Source: Candidatus Saccharimonadia bacterium
Lineage (GTDB): Bacteria > Patescibacteriota > Saccharimonadia > UBA4664
Assembly: GCA_041743505.1 (NCBI GenBank)
Contig: JBGTMQ010000020.1
Coordinates: forward strand, 17,099-81,098
Direction: 5' to 3'
DNA: 64,000 bases
Shown in pieces: positions 12,105-48,911 of this stretch (positions are counted from its first letter, which is position 1; each line of letters starts with the position of its first letter). The notes beneath the pieces are model-generated. The model saw only the letters and a program-made list of their open reading frames with translations, did not search any database and was not told the DNA's origin. Position numbers and translations under genes: made by a program.

Positions 12105-12146
12105 TAGCTTAGCAAACTCCAGCCTTATGCGTAGAAAATTTCGGCC

Positions 12147-12177
12147 CGCCTGGTGATGTACCAGGCGGGCCGTTTGC
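12147..12177. promoter_or_regulatory. perfect 12-bp-arm inverted repeat in divergent promoter region
   Basis: GGCCCGCCTGGT-gatgta-ACCAGGCGGGCC, between the pentapeptide gene and DUF397 copy 1. Confidence 0.3.
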
Positions 12178-12351
12178 GTACCTCTGCAAGGTTATATTGG
12201 CGAATATATGCTTTCTAACATACAAATGCTAAAAGCTGAGCATGACTGTTTATAAAATGACAAAAGAGTTCAACAAAATTATTGACAACTATGATTGGCA
12301 TGGTTGACAATAGAAGGGCGCAATCCAGCGCCAAGCACCGAAGGAGTAACA

Positions 12352-12582
12352 ATGGGCCTTCCGGCTATCGCAAAAGCCGAAAACCTGTCAGTTTCGTGGC
12401 AGAAGAGCACGCTTTGCTCTAACCCGAGCGGCTGCGTCGAGCTCGCAGAACTGAGAACAGGAGTGATTGTTCTCCGCGACTCGCAGAACCCTTCCGGACC
12501 CGCCTTGTGCTTTACGCCTGGTGAAATTGCAGCATTCATTGGCGGCGCCCAAAAGGGCGAGTTCGACAAATACACTGTCTGA
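12352..12582 (+). CDS. DUF397 domain protein (copy 1)
   Basis: DUF397 consensus blocks are present, including RDSQNPSGPALCFTPGEIAAFIGGAQKGEFD. RBS AAGGAG at 12341. An inverted repeat lies at 12317-12332. Confidence 0.7.
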   Translation: MGLPAIAKAENLSVSWQKSTLCSNPSGCVELAELRTGVIVLRDSQNPSGPALCFTPGEIAAFIGGAQKGEFDKYTV

Positions 12583-12620
12583 CACCACGCTGCACAACAC
12601 TTACGGCTCTAATGCCGCCT

Positions 12621-13244
12621 CTACAAGCGCTCATCCTTCGGATGGGCGTTTTCTCTTTCGTAGCTCTCGCCAATGATACCCTTGGGTTTAATCCGGTCGA
12701 GGCCCAACTTCTGACCGCGTTCGCATGCCCCACCGTAGGTTGAAGACCAAATCGCGTACACCCCCAACAGTCGCTGCATTCGCGAGAGTCCTGCCTCAGC
12801 CGCAAACCTATCAAACAATTTGGCACTGTACCACTCTACTGATGTTTTGCCATTTATATCAATCGGCACCTGGTCCTGATTTGCATCGGCAAAAAAGGTG
12901 GCGCCGGGATGGCCGCGGTCGTGCTGCGACAATCCCAATAGGACCGCCTCAATAAACCCAGCTGGCAACTGGACCCCCGTGTAGATCTGAATTTCGTCCA
13001 GCGCTTCGGCCCCCTTGTCTGTCACGCGCTGGGCGTGATCTATGCCGTGGTAAGTTAGGCGCGGGTTGTCACATGTAAACAGCGAGTTTGCCAATATACG
13101 ACTAAAATCCGAGTGTCCCCGGTCATCAAAAGCAGCTAGGGTTCCCAGTTCAGTCACGTTGCCGTCAGCCGGTGCCAGCGACGGTGGTAGCCCTTGTGGG
13201 TACCAACTCGCAAAGTCAGAGTCAATGAGACGGCCAATCTCCAT
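12621..13244 (-). CDS. hypothetical protein with HD-domain-like H...HD motifs
   Basis: 208 aa from MEIGRL, with AGGAG upstream. Motifs YHGIDHAQRV then LLGLSQHDRGH resemble HD phosphohydrolase motifs I and II. The longer track ORF is the 5' extension. Confidence 0.4.
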   Translation of the reverse strand: MEIGRLIDSDFASWYPQGLPPSLAPADGNVTELGTLAAFDDRGHSDFSRILANSLFTCDNPRLTYHGIDHAQRVTDKGAEALDEIQIYTGVQLPAGFIEAVLLGLSQHDRGHPGATFFADANQDQVPIDINGKTSVEWYSAKLFDRFAAEAGLSRMQRLLGVYAIWSSTYGGACERGQKLGLDRIKPKGIIGESYERENAHPKDERL

Positions 13245-13500
13245 CTGAGCTCCTAAGCGTTGAGGTGCAGAATGTAGAAAACAAACCGACACATATGTTA
13301 TAACACACTCAATTAACAAATGTAGTTTATATATAGTTTGCATAAAGTGAGCTAATAAGCCGAACACAGTTCCTTCTGGAAGCAAGTGTTTGGCCATCAG
13401 TAGTTGACAAAAGTAGTTGACAGAATTATTTGACACCCACGTCTGACATGATTGACAATGATCTTGGCACAACCGATGTGCCAATGCGGAAGGACAGAAA

Positions 13501-13728
13501 ATGGTAGAAAAGGCAGTAGTTTTGGACGCTCAGGCACAATTGCCTGGGGTCGTGTGGCGCAAGAGTAGCCGCAGCGGCCAGCTCGGCAACTGTGTCGAGG
13601 TTGCCTCCCTGGAGAGCGGACAGACGGCTGTCCGGGATTCCAAGAACCCGGCTGGCCCGGCCCTGATCTACACCTCCGCCGAGTGGGCAGCCTTCACAGC
13701 CGGCGTGAACGACGGCGAATTCAGCTAG
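13501..13728 (+). CDS. DUF397 domain protein (copy 2)
   Basis: VWRKSSRSGQLGNCVEVA...VRDSKNPAGPALIYTSAEWAAFTAGVNDGEF is close to the DUF397 consensus. Confidence 0.8.
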   Translation: MVEKAVVLDAQAQLPGVVWRKSSRSGQLGNCVEVASLESGQTAVRDSKNPAGPALIYTSAEWAAFTAGVNDGEFS

Positions 13729-13918
13729 TAGCTAGCTGATGTTCTAGCGGCTAATTTCACTTTCGGGATATAATCCCGCAGTTCCATAGCGCCTATCCGC
13801 AAGGATGGGCGCTTTTCCTATTGCCGAATTTCGTAGTTTTTACCAATAGACATTACGGTATGACATAAATAACATATTGCTATGGCACAACTCAGTGCCA
13901 TCCTGAGAAGGGGTAACA

Positions 13919-14137
13919 ATGAACGGCATGAGGATCTTGAACGCCCAGGCCGACTTGCCTGGAATTGTGTGGCGCAGCCGCTGCAACGGCAGCGACCAGT
14001 GCGTCGAGGTGGGAGGACTACCGAACGGCCTCAAGGCCGTCCGCGACTCCAAGAACAAGACGGGTCCGGCGCTGGTCATCACCGGGGCAGAGTTCGCCGC
14101 AGTCACCGCCGGCATCCGCAATGGTGAATTCTCCTAG
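13919..14137 (+). CDS. DUF397 domain protein (copy 3)
   Basis: IVWRSRCNGSDQCVEV...VRDSKNKTGPALVITGAEFAAVTAGIRNGEF matches the DUF397 consensus. Confidence 0.8.
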   Translation: MNGMRILNAQADLPGIVWRSRCNGSDQCVEVGGLPNGLKAVRDSKNKTGPALVITGAEFAAVTAGIRNGEFS

Positions 14138-14339
14138 CACCGCCTGAACACTCGCTGTAACCCGCTTGGGCTGGGACATCCAGCGCACCTAACCCAAGCG
14201 GCTAATCGCAACCTTGTTGGTTAACCCCTTCAGCTAGATAGCGTCTACCTTGTGGGTAGGCGCTTTCTCTTTCGTAGCTCTCGCCAATGATTCATACTAA
14301 ATGTACTAGTAAACTTGAACCATAACACCGGAGACACCT

Positions 14340-15113
14340 ATGCGGGCACTTTGGACCGGCGCAATTTCATTTGGACTCATAAATATTCCCGTCAAGCTCT
14401 ATTCCGGCTCCGAAACCCGGGATGGTCTCGACTTGCGCATGCTCCATAAGAAAGATAATGCGCCCATCCGCTATGCCAAAATCTGCACCGCCGAAGGCGC
14501 CGAAGTACCCTACGAGGAAATCGTCAAAGGCTACGAGTATGCCAAAGGCCAGTTTGTGGTCCTGGAGGATGAGGATTTTGAGGCGGCTGACGCCAAAAAA
14601 ACCAGCACCATCGATATCGTCGAGTTTGTCGATGAAGACCAGATCGACGTCCGTTATCTGGAGAAGCCGTATTATCTGGAGCCCGCCAAGGGAGCCGACA
14701 AGGCCTATGCCTTGCTCCGTGAAGCGCTCAAAAAATCCAACCGGCTGGCCGTCGCCACGTTTGTCTTACGGCAGCGCGAACATTTGGCGCTCATCAAGAC
14801 CGTCGGCCAGGCCCTCGTACTCAACCAAATGCGTTTCCCGGCTGATTTACGCTCGCCGGGCGGGCTTAAGCTGCCGCCCAAAAGTGCCGCCACCGAGCGC
14901 GAACTGGATATGGCGCTCAAGCTAGTCGAGCAGCTGACGCATCCATTTATCCCCGAAGACTTCCACGATACCTACACCGAAGAATTGCAGACGCGCATCG
15001 AAGCCAAGGTCAAAGGCAAGCCCACGCCCAAAGCTGCCCCCGCCCAAGCCGCACCCGCCCAGGATATGATGGCCGCCCTCAAAGCCAGTCTTGAGGCCAC
15101 CAGCACCAAATGA
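14340..15113 (+). CDS. ku: Ku protein (NHEJ DNA end-binding)
   Basis: Canonical bacterial Ku N-terminus (MRALWTGAISFGLINIPVKLY) and core. Lys/Ala-rich C-terminal tail. Confidence 0.9.
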   Translation: MRALWTGAISFGLINIPVKLYSGSETRDGLDLRMLHKKDNAPIRYAKICTAEGAEVPYEEIVKGYEYAKGQFVVLEDEDFEAADAKKTSTIDIVEFVDEDQIDVRYLEKPYYLEPAKGADKAYALLREALKKSNRLAVATFVLRQREHLALIKTVGQALVLNQMRFPADLRSPGGLKLPPKSAATERELDMALKLVEQLTHPFIPEDFHDTYTEELQTRIEAKVKGKPTPKAAPAQAAPAQDMMAALKASLEATSTK

Positions 15114-17602
15114 GCCTCGAACAGTACCAGGCCAAACGGCGCTTTGACCAAACCCCCGAGCCGCAAGCCGGGCAGGGAAGTGGGCCGCTGCGCTTTGTGG
15201 TCCAAAAGCACGCCGCCTCGCATTTGCACTACGATTTTCGCTTGGAAATGGGCAGTATCCTTAAAAGCTGGGCCGTACCCAAGGGTCCCTCACTCAACCC
15301 TCACGACAAGCGCCTGGCCATGATGACCGAAGACCATCCCTACGACTACCGTACCTTCGAAGGCATCATCCCCGAAGGCAATTACGGCGCCGGCACGGTT
15401 ATGGTCTGGGATGAAGGTACCTACGAGCCGGTCGTCTGGGACAAAAAAACCGGCGTCACTCTGCATCTCAGCCGCCAGGAACAAGACAAAGCCGCCCGTC
15501 ACAGCGTCCATGCCGGCCACCTCACCTTCATCCTACGTGGCCAAAAACTAAACGGTGAGTTCGCCCTTATCAAAATGCATGACGCCGAGGAAAACGCCTG
15601 GCTGCTCGTTAAGGCCGACAAAGATGATGCGGTCACCACCAAAGATGTCACCAAGCAGGACCGCTCAGCCCTCAGCGGCCGCACCTTGGACGAAATAGCC
15701 AAAGGCGGCGGCGCTGCCTGGACTCGCGCTCCCGGCCTGTCCGGCGCGCCGCCCGCGCCACTGCCCGATACCGTAGCGCCAATGCTGGCCACCCTGGCCG
15801 AAGCGCCGTTCGATGACCCGGACTGGCTCTACGAAATCAAATGGGACGGCTACCGCGCCATCGCCACTATCACTCCCGAAGGCGTAAAATTACGCTCCCG
15901 CCGCGACCAGGATTTTGCCGCCAAATACCCGCCCGTCACCTCCGCGCTCCAGGACATCCGCGGCGCCACCGCCGTCCTCGACGGCGAGATCGTGGTGCTC
16001 GACGACCAGGGCCGGTCGGTTTTTGAGGGTCTCCAGACCTACGCCGACACCGCCGGCACCCTGGTCTACTACGTCTTCGACCTGCTCTACTTGGACGGCC
16101 ACGATCTCACCGGCCTGCCGCTCACCCGGCGCAAACAAATCTTGCGTGATTGGCTGCCGCCCTCCGGGCACGTCCGCTACAGCGACCATGTCAACGAACT
16201 TGGCACCGGCTTTTTTGCCGCTGCCAAGCAGCAAAACCTGGAAGGCATCATGGCCAAGGACGGGCGCAGCCGTTATACACCGGGCAAGCGCAGTCACAGC
16301 TGGTTCAAGATCAAAACCCATGCCCGGCAGGAGGCCGTCATTGGCGGCTACACCGCGCCCCGCGGCTCGCGCTCCGGCTTTGGCGCCCTCGTTCTGGGCG
16401 TCTACGATGAAGACGGCCAACTCCACTACATCGGCCACACCGGCGGCGGCTTTGACGAGCGCTCCATCGCTGACACGCTAGCGAAACTCGAACCACTTCG
16501 CCAACCCGGATCGCCATTTGCCGAAACCTTCAAAACCAACGCTCCGGCTACCTGGGTCAAACCAAAACTTGTTGCCGAGGTCGAGTTCCGCGAGTGGACC
16601 GACGACGGCCATATGCGCCAACCAATCTTCCTCGGCCTGCGCCCCGACAAGTCACCCAAATCCGTCCACCGCGAAACCGCCGTCACCCCGCCACCCGAAA
16701 CCAAACCACTCGCCGCCTCAACTGGCACACGCCGCGCTCCCATCCACCACCCCGACAAAGTCTTCTGGCCCGATGACGGCATCACCAAGGGTGAGCTGGC
16801 CGCCTACTACCAGGCCATCGCGCCCACGCTCCTGCCGTACCTCAAAGACCGCCCCGAATCCCTCAACCGGTTTCCGCATGGCATTGCCGGCGACAGTTTT
16901 TACCAGAAAAACGTCGAGGATGCCCCCGATTGGGTCCGCCGCGTCACCGTCCATTCCGACAGCGAAAACCATGACGTGCATTACGTTGTCTGCGACGACC
17001 TCGATACGCTCCTGTATCTCGTCAACCTCGGCTGCATTGAGCTCAACCCTTGGAACTCGCGCATCCAGCACCCAGAACACCCCGATTGGGCCGTCATCGA
17101 CCTGGACCCCGAAGACGTCAGCTTCGACACCGTCGTCGAGGTCGCCCAAATGGTCCATCAGGTCCTAGAATCTGCCGGCATCCCGCATTACCCCAAAACC
17201 TCCGGCGCCACGGGTCTGCACATCTACATTCCCATGGACGCCCAATACACCTACGACCAGGTCAAAAATTTTGCCCACATCAACTGCCAGCTCGTAGGCG
17301 CCAGGCTGCCCGACGTCACCAGCCTGGAGCGCAGCCCGGCCAAACGCCAGCAGCGGGTCTATCTGGACTACTTGCAAAACCGCCGTGGCCAAACCCTGGC
17401 TGCCGCCTACGCTGTCCGCCCCCGGCCCGGTGCCACCGTCTCCACGCCGCTGCATTGGGACGAAGTCAAACCCGGCCTCGACCCCAAAACCTTTACGATT
17501 CACACCATGCCGGCCCGCCTCCAGGAAGCCGGCGACCTCTGGCAACCGGTTATCGGCCCCGGCGTCGATCTGCTCAAGGCATTAAAGCACCTGGACGCGT
17601 AA
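15110..17602 (+). CDS. ligD: multidomain ATP-dependent DNA ligase LigD (phosphoesterase - ligase - polymerase order)
   Basis: The N-terminal PE domain carries HYDFRLE. The ligase domain has the KxDG adenylation motif (EIKWDGYRA). The C-terminal LigD polymerase/primase domain follows. Overlaps the ku stop (ATGA). Confidence 0.9.
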   Translation: MSLEQYQAKRRFDQTPEPQAGQGSGPLRFVVQKHAASHLHYDFRLEMGSILKSWAVPKGPSLNPHDKRLAMMTEDHPYDYRTFEGIIPEGNYGAGTVMVWDEGTYEPVVWDKKTGVTLHLSRQEQDKAARHSVHAGHLTFILRGQKLNGEFALIKMHDAEENAWLLVKADKDDAVTTKDVTKQDRSALSGRTLDEIAKGGGAAWTRAPGLSGAPPAPLPDTVAPMLATLAEAPFDDPDWLYEIKWDGYRAIATITPEGVKLRSRRDQDFAAKYPPVTSALQDIRGATAVLDGEIVVLDDQGRSVFEGLQTYADTAGTLVYYVFDLLYLDGHDLTGLPLTRRKQILRDWLPPSGHVRYSDHVNELGTGFFAAAKQQNLEGIMAKDGRSRYTPGKRSHSWFKIKTHARQEAVIGGYTAPRGSRSGFGALVLGVYDEDGQLHYIGHTGGGFDERSIADTLAKLEPLRQPGSPFAETFKTNAPATWVKPKLVAEVEFREWTDDGHMRQPIFLGLRPDKSPKSVHRETAVTPPPETKPLAASTGTRRAPIHHPDKVFWPDDGITKGELAAYYQAIAPTLLPYLKDRPESLNRFPHGIAGDSFYQKNVEDAPDWVRRVTVHSDSENHDVHYVVCDDLDTLLYLVNLGCIELNPWNSRIQHPEHPDWAVIDLDPEDVSFDTVVEVAQMVHQVLESAGIPHYPKTSGATGLHIYIPMDAQYTYDQVKNFAHINCQLVGARLPDVTSLERSPAKRQQRVYLDYLQNRRGQTLAAAYAVRPRPGATVSTPLHWDEVKPGLDPKTFTIHTMPARLQEAGDLWQPVIGPGVDLLKALKHLDA

Positions 17603-30772: not shown

Positions 30773-30799
30773 AAAAGGAGGCCAATTAGCCTCCTTTTT
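30773..30799. terminator. rho-independent terminator
   Basis: AAAAGGAGGCC-aatta-GCCTCCTTTTT. A near-identical copy lies at 31617-31642. Confidence 0.7.
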
Positions 30800-30907: not shown

Positions 30908-31573
30908 ATGAATCCAAATCGAAAAGCAGCTGGTTTAGCCGGCATCTTAACTGGTCTGTTGCTGGCCGGAGAATTTTTCTTTTTTATGTTAAGCAACTAC
31001 TCGCCTGCCGCATACAATAATGCGAATGAGGCACTCGCAATTCTTACAGATAATGTAAACATTTTGCGGGCTGCGGTACTGTTCGGTATCGCAGGGGCAA
31101 TCGTAAGAATAGTATACGTCGCAGGATTAGCCGCTGTTTTGTATCCAAAAGCACCATCGCAAGCTGTTGCTGTAAAATACTTTGGTATATTGGGCGGTAT
31201 CGGTCATGGACTAGTAGCTCTGACCTTTTTTAGCGGCCTGCCAGTATTGGTTACGCTTGCCGCCCAAGACGCTATGCTGGCGCAACAGGTGTGGCATAGC
31301 TTCACTATTATAACCAGCGGCTTTCAAAGTCTCGGTAACACCCTGCTAGGCCTCTTCCTGCTTGTATCCGGTTTTGTTATCGTTCGCCATCGAGTACTAT
31401 CCTCAGGCCTTGGTTGGGTCGGTATAGCCGGAGGTGTAGCGACACTTATTGGGGTGTTCAGCGCTCAGACCGCGTTTTCCGGTATCGGCTTCATGGCATT
31501 CATGACTTCATTGCCACTTGCCGTAATCTTCAACATTTGGTCGGGTATAAAATTGTACAAACTAGCCGATTGA
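30908..31573 (+). CDS. membrane protein (low-GC cassette)
   Basis: 221 aa with about 6 TM helices. The cassette is AT-rich relative to its flanks and has the RBS AAGGAG. Confidence 0.55.
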   Translation: MNPNRKAAGLAGILTGLLLAGEFFFFMLSNYSPAAYNNANEALAILTDNVNILRAAVLFGIAGAIVRIVYVAGLAAVLYPKAPSQAVAVKYFGILGGIGHGLVALTFFSGLPVLVTLAAQDAMLAQQVWHSFTIITSGFQSLGNTLLGLFLLVSGFVIVRHRVLSSGLGWVGIAGGVATLIGVFSAQTAFSGIGFMAFMTSLPLAVIFNIWSGIKLYKLAD

Positions 31574-31616: not shown

Positions 31617-31642
31617 AAGGAGGCCAGTTGGCCTCCTTTTGA
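31617..31642. terminator. rho-independent terminator (near-identical to 30773-30799)
   Basis: AAAAGGAGGCC-agtt-GGCCTCCTTTT. Confidence 0.7.
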
Positions 31643-44650: not shown

Positions 44651-44742
44651 CCTTAGTTTAAGAATTGCTTAAGCATAAACATAATTTAACATTTTACTGA
44701 AGCAAAGAATATCAGCAAACCGCTTCTACTAACGATATTTAC

Positions 44743-45045
44743 TTACTGACCGAATAATGCCCAAATCCAACCCATTTGAATACTAACAAACAACCCCCAG
44801 CCAATAAGGGCCAGATAAGTTCCAGCCTTGCGAATGAGCAATAGTCGCTTTCGAATCTTCTGATCTTTTTGACGGCGGATCGCCATCGTGATGCCGATGA
44901 ATGCCGCGACGAGGATGACGAGAAAAATAATTGTATAGTTCACATAGTCATAAAAGCGTTGGGCCCAAAGATCTTGCCAAACGGGACTACCGTACGTAAG
45001 GAAGCCTAAATGATATTGGATAATACTCATGTCTACAGTGTACAT
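44743..45045 (-). CDS. small membrane protein, paralog family A (copy 1)
   Basis: The C-terminal 75 aa are near-identical to 48544..48831. Related to 47008..47286. Confidence 0.5.
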   Translation of the reverse strand: MYTVDMSIIQYHLGFLTYGSPVWQDLWAQRFYDYVNYTIIFLVILVAAFIGITMAIRRQKDQKIRKRLLLIRKAGTYLALIGWGLFVSIQMGWIWALFGQ

Positions 45046-45101
45046 AATTTATCCCTACAAAAGCTAAGTCTAGGAGAGCAAGATGCACTCTCCGGGACTA
45101 T

Positions 45102-45461
45102 ATGTTGTTCTTAGCTTGCCCAGGGCAGCTTCCAAAATTTGGAAATACCCTACTAGAACGCTACACTAAGACAGAAATGACGCGCCTAAGTCTTAGTCTT
45201 GTACTACTCCTCAGCGGCCTCCTATTGGCGTTGGTAGCATATACTTGGGCAGCCCCTCAAGTCTGCGCACTCAAGGGTTTACCAATGAACTCATTTGGTT
45301 GCCTGTACATCGTTATCTATGCAACGGCGGGCGCACTACTCGTGCCGTTCTTAGCGGGTCTCGTACTGTACGTACGAGAACTCCGCCGAACTCTTAAGCC
45401 CAATTCAAACACCAAGCAGGGTAAAAGTATGATACCCAGCAAAAAAGATCTAATTATGTGA
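45102..45461 (+). CDS. small membrane protein
   Basis: 119 aa with 2-3 TM helices. Confidence 0.3.
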   Translation: MLFLACPGQLPKFGNTLLERYTKTEMTRLSLSLVLLLSGLLLALVAYTWAAPQVCALKGLPMNSFGCLYIVIYATAGALLVPFLAGLVLYVRELRRTLKPNSNTKQGKSMIPSKKDLIM

Positions 45462-45470
45462 TGATTTCAA

Positions 45471-45785
45471 CTAACGAAGGTTTTCCCAACCTGTTGGAAC
45501 GATTGAAAGAAACTTATAGACGGCCAACTGAGCGATTAAAAGGAACACGGCGAGAGAAGCAGAAGCAATAAGCCAGCCTTTACGCGGCTTATTTAGCCAA
45601 AACCAGCCGAGCCAAGCTAAGCCAGTACCAATAGCTGTTACAGCACCAAATTCAACAACAGAAACCCCCTGATAACGTGCATACTTCCAATACAGGACGG
45701 AAAAGATAATGTAATACACAGGAACAGCTAGTTGGCGAATCACATTGAGGCATTGCTTATTCATGGATATATAGGGAGAAGTCAT
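45471..45785 (-). CDS. small membrane protein, paralog family B (copy 1)
   Basis: Shared motifs with 45802..46095 (IIF..YWKYA.YQG....EFG.V.......LAWLGWF.LN.PRK). Confidence 0.5.
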   Translation of the reverse strand: MTSPYISMNKQCLNVIRQLAVPVYYIIFSVLYWKYARYQGVSVVEFGAVTAIGTGLAWLGWFWLNKPRKGWLIASASLAVFLLIAQLAVYKFLSIVPTGWENLR

Positions 45786-45801
45786 CTGCCCTTACTGTTC
45801 A

Positions 45802-46095
45802 TTATTTGATATTTTCCCAACCCGCGGGAAGAGAAGTCATAAATGTATACACATATATCAGAGCGAATAGTAAAACTATTACTAACGAGGCTGAGGAAAT
45901 AAGCACTGCTTTACGTGGTTGATTCAATAAGAACCAGCCGAGCCAAGCAAGCACGCCACCAGCGGTGATAACGCTACCAAATTCATAGGCAGTGAAGCCT
46001 TGGTAAAACGCGTATTTCCAAAAAATGATTATGAAAATAATGTAAGTCAAAGGGATACTTAGTTGACGAGCTATGGTAGAATATTGCTTACTCAT
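45802..46095 (-). CDS. small membrane protein, paralog family B (copy 2)
   Basis: Tandem paralog of 45471..45785. Confidence 0.5.
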   Translation of the reverse strand: MSKQYSTIARQLSIPLTYIIFIIIFWKYAFYQGFTAYEFGSVITAGGVLAWLGWFLLNQPRKAVLISSASLVIVLLFALIYVYTFMTSLPAGWENIK

Positions 46096-46357
46096 AGCAA
46101 TATTCTACCATAAGCGAATAAGCAGATCGATCGCTGAATTTAATAAGCGGGTGGACACCGAAAGGCGCCCACCCGCAACCTTATCCCAGCCTTACGAGCT
46201 TCTGCTACAGTATTCTTGATGACATCATTGAGCTTGAATCCAAAACTTCAGTACGAGCACAAAAAAAGTCCACATCCCGAGTCATATCGTGATGTGGACT
46301 AAAATCTAGTTGCGAGTACAGATTGAACCGCGGCTAGTATTCGGCTAACATTATGAC

Positions 46358-46600
46358 ATGAAAGGCACGAACAAAGGTTCAAAACCCGTGAAAAACAGGT
46401 CAATAGCGGGGCTAATACTCATATGCCTGAGTCCTCTCGCTGCGTTGCCGGCGGTCACATTTCTAGGTTCGAGCGTATGCCAGCCCCAAGGCGGCTTTTT
46501 AGACTTCAGTTGCCTCCAGCCTAACGCCTACCTTGGAGCCGCTGCTTTAGCATCGGCGCTACTTATTGGTTGCCTGCTGTATTTTTGGCCTTCGCGCTAA
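46358..46600 (+). CDS. small membrane protein
   Basis: 80 aa with 2 TM helices. Confidence 0.3.
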   Translation: MKGTNKGSKPVKNRSIAGLILICLSPLAALPAVTFLGSSVCQPQGGFLDFSCLQPNAYLGAAALASALLIGCLLYFWPSR

Positions 46601-46737
46601 GGACATAGCATTGCGTTATCCTTACTGCTCCTGCAAGTTAATTATATAACGCCTCTATACGCAGTACTTTGGACACTAACTTGGCTGCTTGCTGGGCTCA
46701 TCGTATGCATTCGAGATTCGGCCTGGGCTTCAATGCT

Positions 46738-46995
46738 CTACAATAACCCCACATAGTTTCCGGATGGTATAAAAACGAAGAAATACCACGCTAGCCCACC
46801 AAGGGAAGCTATTGCTGCACAATAAGCTAGAGTTTTGAGAGTCTTCTTTATTTGCGAGCGCCGCTGGCTTTTCCGCCCAGCCAAATACCAATAACTACCA
46901 AGTAACGCAAGCACGATAATCAGTGGCAAAACGATAACTAAGAATATGTGTGCATAAAAAGCTGAAGCTGGAATAAAGCCGTCTGGGTAGTACAT
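46738..46995 (-). CDS. small membrane protein
   Basis: 85 aa with 2 TM helices. Confidence 0.35.
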   Translation of the reverse strand: MYYPDGFIPASAFYAHIFLVIVLPLIIVLALLGSYWYLAGRKSQRRSQIKKTLKTLAYCAAIASLGGLAWYFFVFIPSGNYVGLL

Positions 46996-47007
46996 AGTCG
47001 TGTATTA

Positions 47008-47286
47008 CTAGCCGAGCGGTATCAGAGACATTCCTACGCCGACAAAAAATAGCCACCCTATTAATGAGAGATAAGTACCAATTTTGCGAGCTAACAATAG
47101 TTGCTTTCGAACCTTCTGATTCTTTTGATGACGGATGGCAATTGTTACCACTGTAAAGGCGGCAATAAGAACGACAAAGAAAATAATCGTATAAAGCTCA
47201 TATTCGTAAAGTCGCTGATTCCAAGTATTTTGCCAGTCAGGATCATTCGGGGAAAATGCACCGAAAAGAAATTGGATATTATTCAT
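47008..47286 (-). CDS. small membrane protein, paralog family A (copy 2, diverged)
   Basis: Shares the FSP.DP.W...W.QR.Y.Y..YTIIF...L.AAF...T.AIR.QK.QK.RK.LLL.RK.GTYL.LIGW motif set with family A. Confidence 0.5.
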   Translation of the reverse strand: MNNIQFLFGAFSPNDPDWQNTWNQRLYEYELYTIIFFVVLIAAFTVVTIAIRHQKNQKVRKQLLLARKIGTYLSLIGWLFFVGVGMSLIPLG

Positions 47287-47323
47287 ATATTACAGTCTAC
47301 ACAATTTAGCAACACAAAAGCAT

Positions 47324-47356
47324 AGTCCCGGGGAGCATACTATGCTCCCCGGGACT
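47324..47356. terminator. 33-nt perfect hairpin (family of 3: also ~45068-45099 degenerate, 48868-48900)
   Basis: AGTCCCGGGGAGCATA-g-TATGCTCCCCGGGACT sits between the 3' end of the hydrolase-domain gene and the 5' end of a family-A gene. Confidence 0.5.
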
Positions 47357-47363
47357 ATTGTAA

Positions 47364-47978
47364 TCAGTGTATACCGGCACGCAGTGCTGCAACAGCAGCA
47401 TTAGCGATCTTGGTCTGACCAGCATCATTGGGATGTGGGTAGCCGAAGTAGCGAGTTTGCTGCAACCGCGACAAAGGGCTATTACCAAATGCCGTCCGGA
47501 GGTCAATCACCATGACACCGGGACCTGCCAAGTCTTGGTGTAGTAGATTCAATCCATCAACTACACTTTGAGCACCATGCCATGTGCCTGTCTTGGTCGG
47601 GTCGGACGGGGTAACTGGAATTTGTCGATTCTGGCTGCATACATTATTCGCCGCCAGTGTGTAGGGGTATAGCATGTCGACAAATCTAGTGCTGGCTGAA
47701 GCCGCTCGACCGTCAGCCATTATGCGGATGAGATCGGCACGAATTGGGCCTCGTTGATCCTGAAGCCGATTGTAAAGCGTCTGCGTGTCTGGGCAGTCAG
47801 ACCAATTCTTTACGTTCCATGGCTTAAGGCTACCCGTACGATTTGCATCGTAAAAATCTTTCAGCGTGGCATCGAACCTGATATTGTTCGCACCTCCAGT
47901 TAGGCTAACGATATTCCAGCTCCCCGAGTTTGAGCGGAGACTGCGAACCATTGCATCAATCTGACCTTGCTCGAACAT
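47364..47978 (-). pseudogene. truncated paralog of the SGNH-hydrolase C-terminal domain of 48912..51479 (lacks catalytic GDS block)
   Basis: The 204-aa product aligns almost residue-for-residue with the last roughly 205 aa of the 855-aa protein. It starts just after the position of block I (GDSFSSG), so the nucleophile is absent. Confidence 0.6.
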
Positions 47979-48020
47979 TTGCCGGGTGCTGGCTCCGCTC
48001 TGTGCAACGAGCAGAGTACG

Positions 48021-48224
48021 ATAACGCCAGCCAATACACCCGAAGCGCTAGGTGACAAAATCATTGAACTCCTCCGCGACCCCGCCCGCTACCAAACCCT
48101 CCGCACGCAAGCCTGGCAATGGAGCAAAACCATCACCTTCGATCAAAGCTACGCCGACTTCACCAAAGTCCTCAATCTAACTACCACCCCCAACCAATCC
48201 CGCCAAGAAGTTCCTACTCCGTGA
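48021..48224 (+). repeat. duplicated copy (~97% identical) of the 3' end of the GT4 gene (44083-44286), fused to hydrolase-derived sequence
   Basis: About 195 bp of 44092-44286 recurs with roughly 6 mismatches. The junction uses the 9-bp microhomology ATAACGCCA, present in both parents at 44083-44091 and 49569-49577. It creates the chimeric ORF 47967..48224. Confidence 0.8.
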
Positions 48225-48321
48225 CGGGTCTTTATGCCGAACTTATAGATTTACGCACAAAAACCTGAGCGACAACAATAAGAAAATACCCGAGTGGAGT
48301 GCTATAGACTGCTAAAAACGA

Positions 48322-48519
48322 TTAAGAATTCAGCCAAATATATTGGTAATAATAAAACGCAGCTATCAAAAGCAGAAATGATAGCATTAATAAAGCGAAC
48401 GGCCTCCACCGTAGAGTCTTTGTCTTTTGGAATTGCGTCAGACCCAAACCAAGAGAAACAGCACCACCCAAAAGAATAATACCGAGCAGAACAAGCTCTA
48501 AATATGTAGACGATTTCAT
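48322..48519 (-). CDS. small membrane protein
   Basis: 65 aa with 2 TM helices. Confidence 0.3.
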   Translation of the reverse strand: MKSSTYLELVLLGIILLGGAVSLGLGLTQFQKTKTLRWRPFALLMLSFLLLIAAFYYYQYIWLNS

Positions 48520-48543
48520 ATAAGCATTATAGAAGACATTTAC

Positions 48544-48831
48544 TTACTGACCGAATAATGCCCAAATCCAACCCATTTGAATACTAACAAACAGCCCCCA
48601 GCCAATAAGGGCGAGATAAGTTCCAGCCTTGCGAATGAGCAATAATCGCTTTCGAATCTTCTGATCCTTTTGACGGCGGATCGCCATCGTGATGCCGATG
48701 AATGCCGCGACTAGGATGATAAGGAAGATAATGGTGTAGTTTACGTAATCATAAAAGCGGTTGGTCCAAAAAGCGACCCATTCAGGGTCTGTCGGAGAAA
48801 AATCACCAAGATAAAAATGTATATGATTCAT
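48544..48831 (-). CDS. small membrane protein, paralog family A (copy 3)
   Basis: About 95% nt identity to 44743..45045 over the 3' roughly 230 bp. The 5' ends differ. Confidence 0.55.
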   Translation of the reverse strand: MNHIHFYLGDFSPTDPEWVAFWTNRFYDYVNYTIIFLIILVAAFIGITMAIRRQKDQKIRKRLLLIRKAGTYLALIGWGLFVSIQMGWIWALFGQ

Positions 48832-48911
48832 AGCAATAGTCTACGATAATTTTGCATAGAAAAGCAAAGTCCCGGAGAGTAAGGTGCGCTCTCCGGGACT
48901 ATATGTTGTTC

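Follow-up and report, generated by a model that had tools for sequence, protein, structure and literature searches.

Three BldB-like DUF397 genes with individual predicted promoters and terminators, and a truncated phosphodiesterase-like neighbour, in a probable Saccharimonadia genome

DUF397/BldB-type proteins are a hallmark of actinomycete developmental regulation. We analysed a 64-kb stretch of contig JBGTMQ010000020.1 (hereafter the window), which carries an array of three DUF397 genes (D1, D2 and D3) on the + strand, with a convergent, 3'-truncated phosphodiesterase (PDE)-like gene lying between the first and the second. The best explanation of the whole locus is that D1, D2 and D3 are three independently transcribed, monocistronic BldB-like genes, most likely in a Saccharimonadia host; with the history proposed below included, we put the probability of this explanation at roughly 75%. 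The three genes are as follows.

12352-12582, + strand: DUF397 gene 1 (D1), 76 aa; PF04149, E-value 1.2e-16, 61 bits
13501-13728, + strand: DUF397 gene 2 (D2), 75 aa; PF04149, E-value 6.5e-24, 84.3 bits
13919-14137, + strand: DUF397 gene 3 (D3), 72 aa; PF04149, E-value 7.6e-14, 52.1 bits

A preliminary description of this DNA had reported three DUF397 genes on one strand, and all three proteins indeed exceed the Pfam gathering score of 24 bits by which membership of PF04149 was judged. Their reading frames are all intact. In pairwise comparisons, they share 39-58% identity at the protein level and 61-69% identity in coding DNA, and their synonymous sites are saturated (proportion of synonymous differences, pS, 0.52-0.71; synonymous distance, dS, 0.9-2.1), which agrees with the earlier view that they are old, diverged paralogues. 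The ratio of nonsynonymous to synonymous distance (dN/dS) is 0.24-0.45, indicating that the three proteins are under purifying selection. D2 is the copy nearest the DUF397 consensus and shares 70-75% identity with its counterparts in Pseudonocardiaceae and Nocardia. No match to PADLOC or NCBIfam was obtained for the three DUF397 proteins or for the PDE-like protein, and we looked for a solved structure of any DUF397 protein and found none.

Alignment of the three upstream and the three downstream regions showed that the units are homologous end to end, well beyond the points listed in the preliminary description. In each unit, phased TGACA boxes and a predicted promoter are followed by a palindrome at the predicted +1, a GAAGG ribosome-binding site (RBS), the coding sequence, a predicted intrinsic terminator and a trailing sequence. 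The upstream elements are given below.

12243-12311, + strand: unit 1 promoter region; -35 TTGACA (12282-12287), 18-nt spacer, -10 GACAAT (12306-12311); 10 of 12 consensus positions
12317-12332, + strand: unit 1 palindrome GGCGC-AATCCA-GCGCC; perfect, 5 nt past the -10 hexamer, -8.6 kcal/mol
12340-12346, + strand: unit 1 RBS GAAGGAG; its GAAGG is invariant in all three units
13399-13459, + strand: unit 2 promoter region; -35 TTGACA (13430-13435), -10 GACAAT (13454-13459)
13464-13484, + strand: unit 2 palindrome TTGGCACA-ACCGA-TGTGCCAA; perfect, at the predicted +1
13847-13875, + strand: unit 3 promoter; TAGACA, 17-nt spacer, TAACAT; 9 of 12 consensus positions, weaker than units 1 and 2
13882-13901 (core 13883-13900), + strand: unit 3 palindrome (A)TGGCAC-AACTCA-GTGCCA(T); perfect, at the predicted +1

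Across the window, TTGACA-N17-19-GACAAT occurs in units 1 and 2 only, with 0.01 occurrences expected. The TGACA-like boxes of unit 1 stand in phase at 12282, 12295 and 12304, and the unit 2 promoter contains 2.8 copies of the 13-nt tandem repeat AGTAGTTGACAAA (13399-13435). TTGACA-like boxes are phased at -22, -9 and 0 relative to the box overlapping the -10 element in all three promoters, and 6 of the window's 31 TTGACA hexamers fall within 12243-12311 and 13399-13435. Such phased boxes may form a binding-site array for a direct-repeat-binding regulator. The palindromes start 4-7 nt past the -10 hexamer and end 16-19 nt ahead of the ATG, leaving the RBS free. A hairpin before each start codon had been described previously, and all three are perfect palindromes, although the second had been placed one position off. 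A G-C pair of unit 1 corresponds to A-T in units 2 and 3, a double change that leaves the pairing intact; pairs that look "broken" in the alignment reflect a one-column misalignment caused by the shorter loop of unit 2. Palindromes of the form GGCRCAA...GYGCC were found nowhere else in the window. A sigma-54 promoter, which the TGGCAC motif might suggest, was rejected, since no TTGC element lies at the proper spacing.

The palindrome at the predicted +1 would be either a 5'-terminal mRNA stem-loop or an operator. If it is an operator, the palindromes and phased TGACA boxes would place the three genes in a small regulon, switched on or off by a DNA-binding regulator encoded elsewhere, for example of the XRE/WhiJ or TrmB type, and would not be RNA-stability elements. 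The palindromes are perfect, overlap the predicted start and contain no G-U pairs, the TTGACA-like boxes keep their 13-nt spacing in all three promoters, and WhiJ9 is known to bind direct repeats (PMC10294661); in addition, similarly composed palindromes associated with TrmB are found next to the PDE-like gene in relatives. However, no such regulator was found in the window, the half-site sequence and the loop length vary from unit to unit while the pairing survives the double change, and the match to the TrmB-region palindromes lies within chance expectation. We therefore regard a purely operator role as possible but unlikely.

Downstream of the coding sequences, the three units carry the following elements.

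12625-12677, + strand: unit 1 terminator and trailing sequence TTTCGTAGCTCTCGCCAATGAT; stem-loop 12625-12651, T-tract to about 12658
13788-13847, + strand: unit 2 terminator and trailing sequence TTTCGTAGTTTTTACCAAT; stem-loop 13788-13813 with a GCAA loop, T-tract, 11-nt insertion
14240-14291, + strand: unit 3 terminator and trailing sequence; stem-loop 14240-14264, trailing part 14264-14291 identical to unit 1

These elements have the make-up of intrinsic terminators as predicted from sequence, with a GC-rich hairpin followed by a U-tract past the stop codon. The stems are 11-12 bp long with 3-4-nt loops and T-rich tails, and the spacers between stop codon and terminator measure 42, 59 and 102 nt among the three units. 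All 11 terminator pairs are kept across the three copies, with two compensatory changes, five single changes compatible with G-U pairing and no broken pair. Compared with shuffled sequence, the 3' regions gave folding z-scores of -5.6 for unit 1 and -4.2 for unit 2. On the + strand each hairpin gains 5-6 kcal/mol in stability (for unit 1, -16.4 kcal/mol versus -10.1 kcal/mol on the - strand), because the G-U pairs turn into A-C mismatches on the - strand, and a T-tract follows the hairpins on the + strand only. This strand asymmetry, together with the T-tract, marks them as predicted one-directional terminators of the DUF397 transcripts. The repeated element had been interpreted as a relic of the 3' end of the convergent neighbour; the conserved pairing and the + strand T-tract contradict that interpretation.

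The "30-nt element" of the preliminary description thus corresponds to the 3' arm of the terminator, its T-tract and a 19-22-nt trailing sequence of the pattern TTTCGTAG(C/T)T..CCAAT(GAT). The repeat is real, but its exact part is 28 nt rather than 30 nt long (12650-12677 equals 14264-14291, with a mismatch of T at 12649 against C at 14263); no match of this kind is expected by chance, and the wider repeat around it spans 38 nt at 92% identity. A third copy (13803-13847) is degenerate and carries the 11-nt insertion. The degenerate trailing sequence of unit 2 abuts the -35 box of unit 3, and that of unit 3 ends 48 nt upstream of the start codon of the Ku gene. Among the units, the promoter regions are 67-73% identical and the terminators with trailing sequences 75-88% identical. 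Judged from these alignments, the regulatory flanks are conserved far beyond neutral expectation, by selection, gene conversion or both, in line with the earlier suggestion that one of the two acts on the element: the flanks are 67-88% identical, whereas 52-71% of the synonymous sites differ.

The element does not behave as a widespread repeat. We found only two matches within three mismatches in the window, and among 185,579 species genomes the 19-mer core gave chance matches only (one orthologous Collinsella site with unrelated flanks plus six singletons). A dispersed repeat resembling repetitive extragenic palindromic sequences or miniature inverted-repeat transposable elements was rejected on these grounds. 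An integron attC array, which would call for an integrase gene and RYYYAAC ... GTTRRRY cores at the cassette ends, was rejected as well: no Phage_integrase family is among the matches listed for the open reading frames (ORFs) of the window, the hairpins end in T-tracts and have no GTTRRRY core, and each cassette has a predicted promoter of its own. Rfam returned nothing credible over 11.0-15.5 kb, the sole match being Atu_C9 at 16 bits against a threshold of 40.

The array could alternatively be a decaying, functionless leftover of a foreign insertion whose flanks resemble each other through gene conversion alone. The exact 28-nt stretch of units 1 and 3 stands amid diverged sequence, the adjacent gene is broken, and relatives lack the array, all of which would fit such an origin. 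Yet the three ORFs are intact, score above the Pfam threshold and have a dN/dS of 0.24-0.45, and the promoter hexamers, RBS and terminator stems are conserved while the spacers between stop codon and terminator vary (42, 59 and 102 nt). We thus consider a functionless leftover improbable.

The only gene between the DUF397 units lies on the opposite strand. It and a hairpin upstream of unit 1 are located as follows.

12621-13244, - strand: 3'-truncated PDE-like gene, probably of the HD superfamily, 207 aa, AGGAG RBS, no Pfam match
12142-12172, strand not applicable: GC-rich perfect 13-bp hairpin between the start of a pentapeptide-repeat gene and unit 1, with a folding energy near -29 kcal/mol on both strands

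The ORF is 207 aa long, one residue shorter than first stated. In a word-based (k-mer) homologue search this protein matched nothing but itself; 35 relatives emerged when 1.84 billion representatives were searched exhaustively with HMMER. They form a family of about 310-330 aa: most are 306-335 aa long, and they can be aligned only over their own first ~195 residues. The window copy ends its family homology at about residue 192. Past the conserved ...KPKG(L/I)xG, the family continues with a conserved (L)MRAxDVxP block and about 100 more residues, whereas the window protein continues past the same Gly with ESYERENAHPKDERL and then stops, without similarity to any relative there. In tblastn, the alignments of 22 of 34 relatives end at window position 12669 and so reach 9 nt into the repeat, which is bounded at 12677/12678, and the C-terminal third of the family has no match anywhere in the window. 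The last 15-18 codons of the ORF lie opposite the unit 1 terminator; the stretch 12625-12677 accounts for 17 of them. Since the PDE-like homology ends at the boundary of the DUF397 unit, the tail of the ORF is read-through of the opposite strand of that terminator, and because the alignments end within the repeat and the C-terminal third is missing, the tail comes from the DUF397 unit and not the reverse. The 9-nt overlap GCCAATGAT (Ile-Ile-Gly on the - strand) fits both the repeat and the family consensus and would represent microhomology at the junction.

The window protein retains H66, H70, H108-D109, H112 and E137, which are invariant in the family, and the motifs YH..HA..V and HD..HPG are present. 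Some 110-120 aa of the family's C-terminus are missing from it, and with them the Asp of the MRAxDV motif, which is invariant in the full-length members aligned and would be the last metal ligand of an H..HD..D site. It had been called "HD-like", and this probably holds at the superfamily level through the family profile; the window protein itself has no Pfam match to HD (PF01966) or PDEase_I (PF00233), and its homologues stay below threshold (13.5 bits on HD against 22, and 13.9 bits on PDEase_I against 24.8). Searched against the PDB, the family profile matched PDE catalytic domains (3v93, E-value 2.7e-5, ~64 residues; also PDE10A, PDE5, PDE4 and others). AlphaFold models reached a mean predicted local distance difference test score of 91 with the alignment and 36 from the single sequence, and the best Foldseek matches, all weak (E > 0.1), were HD-superfamily proteins, among them YhaM, BT4208, PDE4B and SAMHD1. 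The neighbour appears to belong to an unnamed HD-superfamily family that is closest to class-I cyclic-nucleotide phosphodiesterases, and the truncated gene is probably inactive, a pseudogene or a remnant. The hairpin at 12142-12172 is terminator-like on the - strand and may have served the PDE-like gene as its terminator before the truncation. Another member of the family, P0011 (locus L083, 255-1194), is broken immediately past this Gly too (KAIFG|TS*); it has lost about 25 codons, among them that of the invariant Asp, and its remaining C-terminus lies in another frame. Either P0011 was inactivated independently at this position, or the break arose during assembly of the sequence.

The preliminary description had proposed that an ancestral pair of a DUF397 gene and a convergent HD-like partner, possibly acting as toxin and antitoxin (TA), was triplicated, that the partner was lost from units 2 and 3, and that the 30-mer is what remains of it. 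In unit 1 the repeated element does overlap the ORF's 3' end, the outermost 9 nt of the repeat encode Ile-Ile-Gly as in the family consensus, and of the 24 XRE-DUF397 pairs of S. clavuligerus, 10 have a bidirectional terminator in common with a convergent gene (PMC8269248). However, the supposed partner comprises only the N-terminal two thirds of its family, with a tail past the Gly that is unlike any relative, and the element folds as a terminator of the DUF397 strand, where alone the G-U pairs and the T-tract are found. Furthermore, none of the five full-length PDE-like relatives that we examined has a DUF397 neighbour in its own contig, and PADLOC and NCBIfam gave no match. The ancestral unit was therefore the DUF397 gene alone, because none of the full-length relatives examined stands beside DUF397 and the array is missing from the host's close relatives. 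Nor does the locus have the structure of a type II TA two-gene operon: each DUF397 gene is monocistronic with a predicted promoter and terminator, and no partner ORF is present. XRE-DUF397 pairs had been predicted to be type II TA systems by Makarova et al. 2009 (PMC2701414), a prediction that failed experimentally, as over-expressed Streptomyces DUF397 proteins were non-toxic in 15 tested pairs (PMC10364602, PMC6262351). A triplicated DUF397-HD pair, with or without TA activity, is thus largely refuted and very improbable.

The organisation of the relatives provides further context. In three of the five full-length PDE-like loci a TrmB-family gene is the divergent partner, and in one Ku-LigD is 2 kb away with a sortase gene nearby, much as in the window; the GC content of these loci is 48-57%. 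In genomes whose Ku is 80-84% identical, Ku-LigD is present, and no DUF397 gene, PDE-like gene or repeat element was found within ±7 kb; since these close relatives lack it, the array is specific to this lineage. In the window, the Ku-LigD operon (14340-17602, coding sequences overlapping by 4 nt) lies directly downstream of the array; it is kept in relatives, while its upstream neighbours differ in every genome examined. The TrmB/PDE-like intergenic regions (L057, 4884-5000; L061, 2567-2691; L062, 2495-2628; L060, 571-689) contain TTGTGCAC-N-GTGCACAA-type palindromes. In them, GACAAT or TACAAT stands 7-9 nt ahead of the TrmB start, which suggests a leaderless transcript. Within L057, GC(G/A)CAACCGAT is shared with the unit 2 hairpin at 10 of 11 positions. 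Homology between the unit hairpins and these palindromes was rejected, as about 0.3 such matches are estimated to arise by chance. No TrmB remnant was found in the window.

In Streptomyces-type genomes, DUF397 genes are usually paired with a gene for an XRE-type helix-turn-helix (HTH) protein, and we defined such a pair by an adjacent gene encoding an XRE-type HTH (HTH_31/HTH_3) and DUF5753, usually immediately upstream. A canonical actinobacterial XRE-DUF397 pair at locus L051 served as the positive control. Pfam searches detected no HTH_3, HTH_31 or DUF5753 domain in the 71 ORFs of at least 63 aa in the window (for its first third, among the matches listed). In addition, phmmer with the genuine XRE-DUF5753 protein of that pair (L051, 1896-2720) gave nothing credible in the window, the best score being 10.6 bits with a membrane-like ORF. 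The only regulators seen in the window were a MarR-family protein and one histidine kinase. The window thus contains no XRE-DUF397 (WhiJ/BldB-type) pair, and the lack of an XRE/DUF5753 partner noted before was borne out by both methods. An actinobacterial metagenome-assembled genome (MAG) of 69% GC (L050, 4001-4687) also carries two DUF397 genes with no XRE neighbour, located beside BREX PglY and near an integrase; partner-less DUF397 genes therefore occur in Actinomycetota too.

With regard to the host, the locus had been discussed by reference to Streptomyces-type genomes, and the relatives of its Ku protein point elsewhere. The window Ku is 72% identical to a 'Candidatus Saccharimonadia' protein, and its named relatives are mostly 'Candidatus Saccharimonadia' or Saccharimonadales. 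The host is probably a member of Saccharimonadia (TM7, Patescibacteria) with a tiny, epibiotic, Saccharibacteria-type genome. The DUF397 proteins themselves resemble actinobacterial proteins, with identities of up to 75%, suggesting that the genes came from Actinomycetota. For D1 and D2, actinobacterial proteins are closer relatives than the paralogues next to them in the array; for D3 the two are at about the same distance. All 20 of the D3-related metagenome loci have 63-75% GC. DUF397 genes are also found in Streptomyces and Saccharomonospora phages (KY092482, NC_047794, JX006077 and others; 36-54% identity to D2), and a Micromonospora plasmid (NZ_CP045310) shares 70.5% DNA identity with D2 over 143 nt. 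These actinophages and the plasmid are possible vehicles for the transfer. All three units share AT-rich promoters and terminators, which are similar to the GACAAT/TACAAT -10 boxes in front of the relatives' TrmB genes, so the duplications most likely took place in the recipient lineage. Our search of the literature library found no report linking DUF397 to Saccharimonadia.

We propose that a DUF397 gene was acquired from Actinomycetota and placed under a promoter typical of the recipient lineage. The whole transcription unit would have been duplicated twice, long ago, and the unit 1 copy would have replaced the 3' third of the resident PDE-like gene, with the junction in or next to GCCAATGAT. 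The stem-loop at +1 may stabilise the 5' end of the mRNA or serve as an operator, and the D1-D3 proteins would act in trans as separately expressed BldB-like adaptors. Streptomyces BldB is a small protein that does not bind DNA; it assembles into homo- and hetero-oligomers with its paralogues and exerts its effect in trans on WhiJ-type XRE regulators encoded elsewhere, and canonical bldB has no adjacent whiJ or abaA paralogue (PMC10294661). In S. clavuligerus, DUF397 genes occur in tandem and as single-gene transcription units, and transcription starts specific to DUF397 are described (PMC8269248).

Several points weigh against this account. The promoters, start sites and terminators are predictions from consensus and folding. 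It is possible that an XRE partner is encoded elsewhere in the genome, past the 64 kb analysed here, which belong to a contig of at least 147 kb. The host assignment depends on a single transfer-prone gene, Ku, and on a few MAG names. The truncated PDE-like ORF has a good RBS and an intact frame, and some residual function is possible; as Ile-Ile-Gly fits the PDE-like consensus, the exact breakpoint and the donor of the 9 nt are ambiguous. A single acquisition followed by duplication is not proven, because each paralogue is at least as similar to actinobacterial DUF397 proteins as to its neighbours, and it is possible that an already-tandem array was transferred and its flanks were homogenised later.

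Cultivated Saccharibacteria live on Actinobacteria (PMC10633639), and a transfer from host to epibiont is therefore plausible. A more far-reaching reading would be that the epibiont captured, re-promoted and diversified BldB-type genes of its host actinomycete and uses them without an XRE partner of its own; we consider this a long shot. The captured proteins could be mimics that hetero-oligomerise with the BldB/WhiJ-partner proteins of the host and disturb its development or antibiotic production, or they could have been rewired onto an unrelated regulator of the epibiont. If the host-to-epibiont transfer is true, the DUF397 genes become candidate host-interaction factors.

Two further features were observed in the window. 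The region 44700-48900 (~46% GC) contains three paralogous small ORFs on the - strand (44743-45045, 47008-47286 and 48544-48831) that share the N-terminal pattern ..F..G.FSP.DP.W...W..R.Y.Y, with small hydrophobic ORFs beside each. Near-identical hairpins AAGGAGGCCAATTAGCCTCCTT and AAGGAGGCCAGTTGGCCTCCTT, at 30775-30796 and 31617-31638, flank the gene at 30908-31573.

Returning to three separately expressed BldB-like genes as the preferred explanation, what is unusual is the presence of selected DUF397 genes, each with its own predicted transcription unit, in a probable Saccharimonadia host. Orphan and tandem DUF397 genes were already known, and a repeat unit that truncates a resident gene makes a neat case. 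The absence of a two-gene module of DUF397 and HD removes a false lead, and the locus illustrates how a repeat overlapping the end of an ORF can be read in the wrong direction. Furthermore, the non-coding promoter, 5' stem-loop and terminator, kept beyond saturated synonymous sites, could help to define rules for promoters and terminators in Patescibacteria.

Among known systems, the array most resembles BldB and the unpaired or tandem DUF397 genes of Streptomyces, with which it shares small PF04149 proteins (72-76 aa here), tandem or single units and the unpaired state of bldB. In contrast to the BldB/WhiJ/AbaA genes of Streptomyces, the 64 kb analysed here showed neither an XRE/WhiJ nor an AbaA paralogue, and unlike Streptomyces DUF397 genes, the three copies lie in a probable Saccharimonadia host of moderate GC (53%), each with a predicted AT-rich sigma-70-type promoter and terminator. 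The XRE-DUF397 pairs Scr1/Scr2 and WhiJ/SCO4542 have the small-protein family in common with the array, which lacks their defining XRE partner. The downstream elements are like Rho-independent terminators in their GC-rich stem of 11-12 bp, 3-4-nt loop and T-rich tail 42-102 nt past the stop codon, and they differ in the conserved 19-22-nt sequence after the T-tract. The truncated neighbour has the YH..HA..V and HD..HPG motifs of class-I 3',5'-cyclic-nucleotide PDEs and the HD superfamily, and its family profile matches PDE catalytic domains, whereas its family is unnamed and below Pfam thresholds, and the copy in the window is without the C-terminal third and the invariant Asp.

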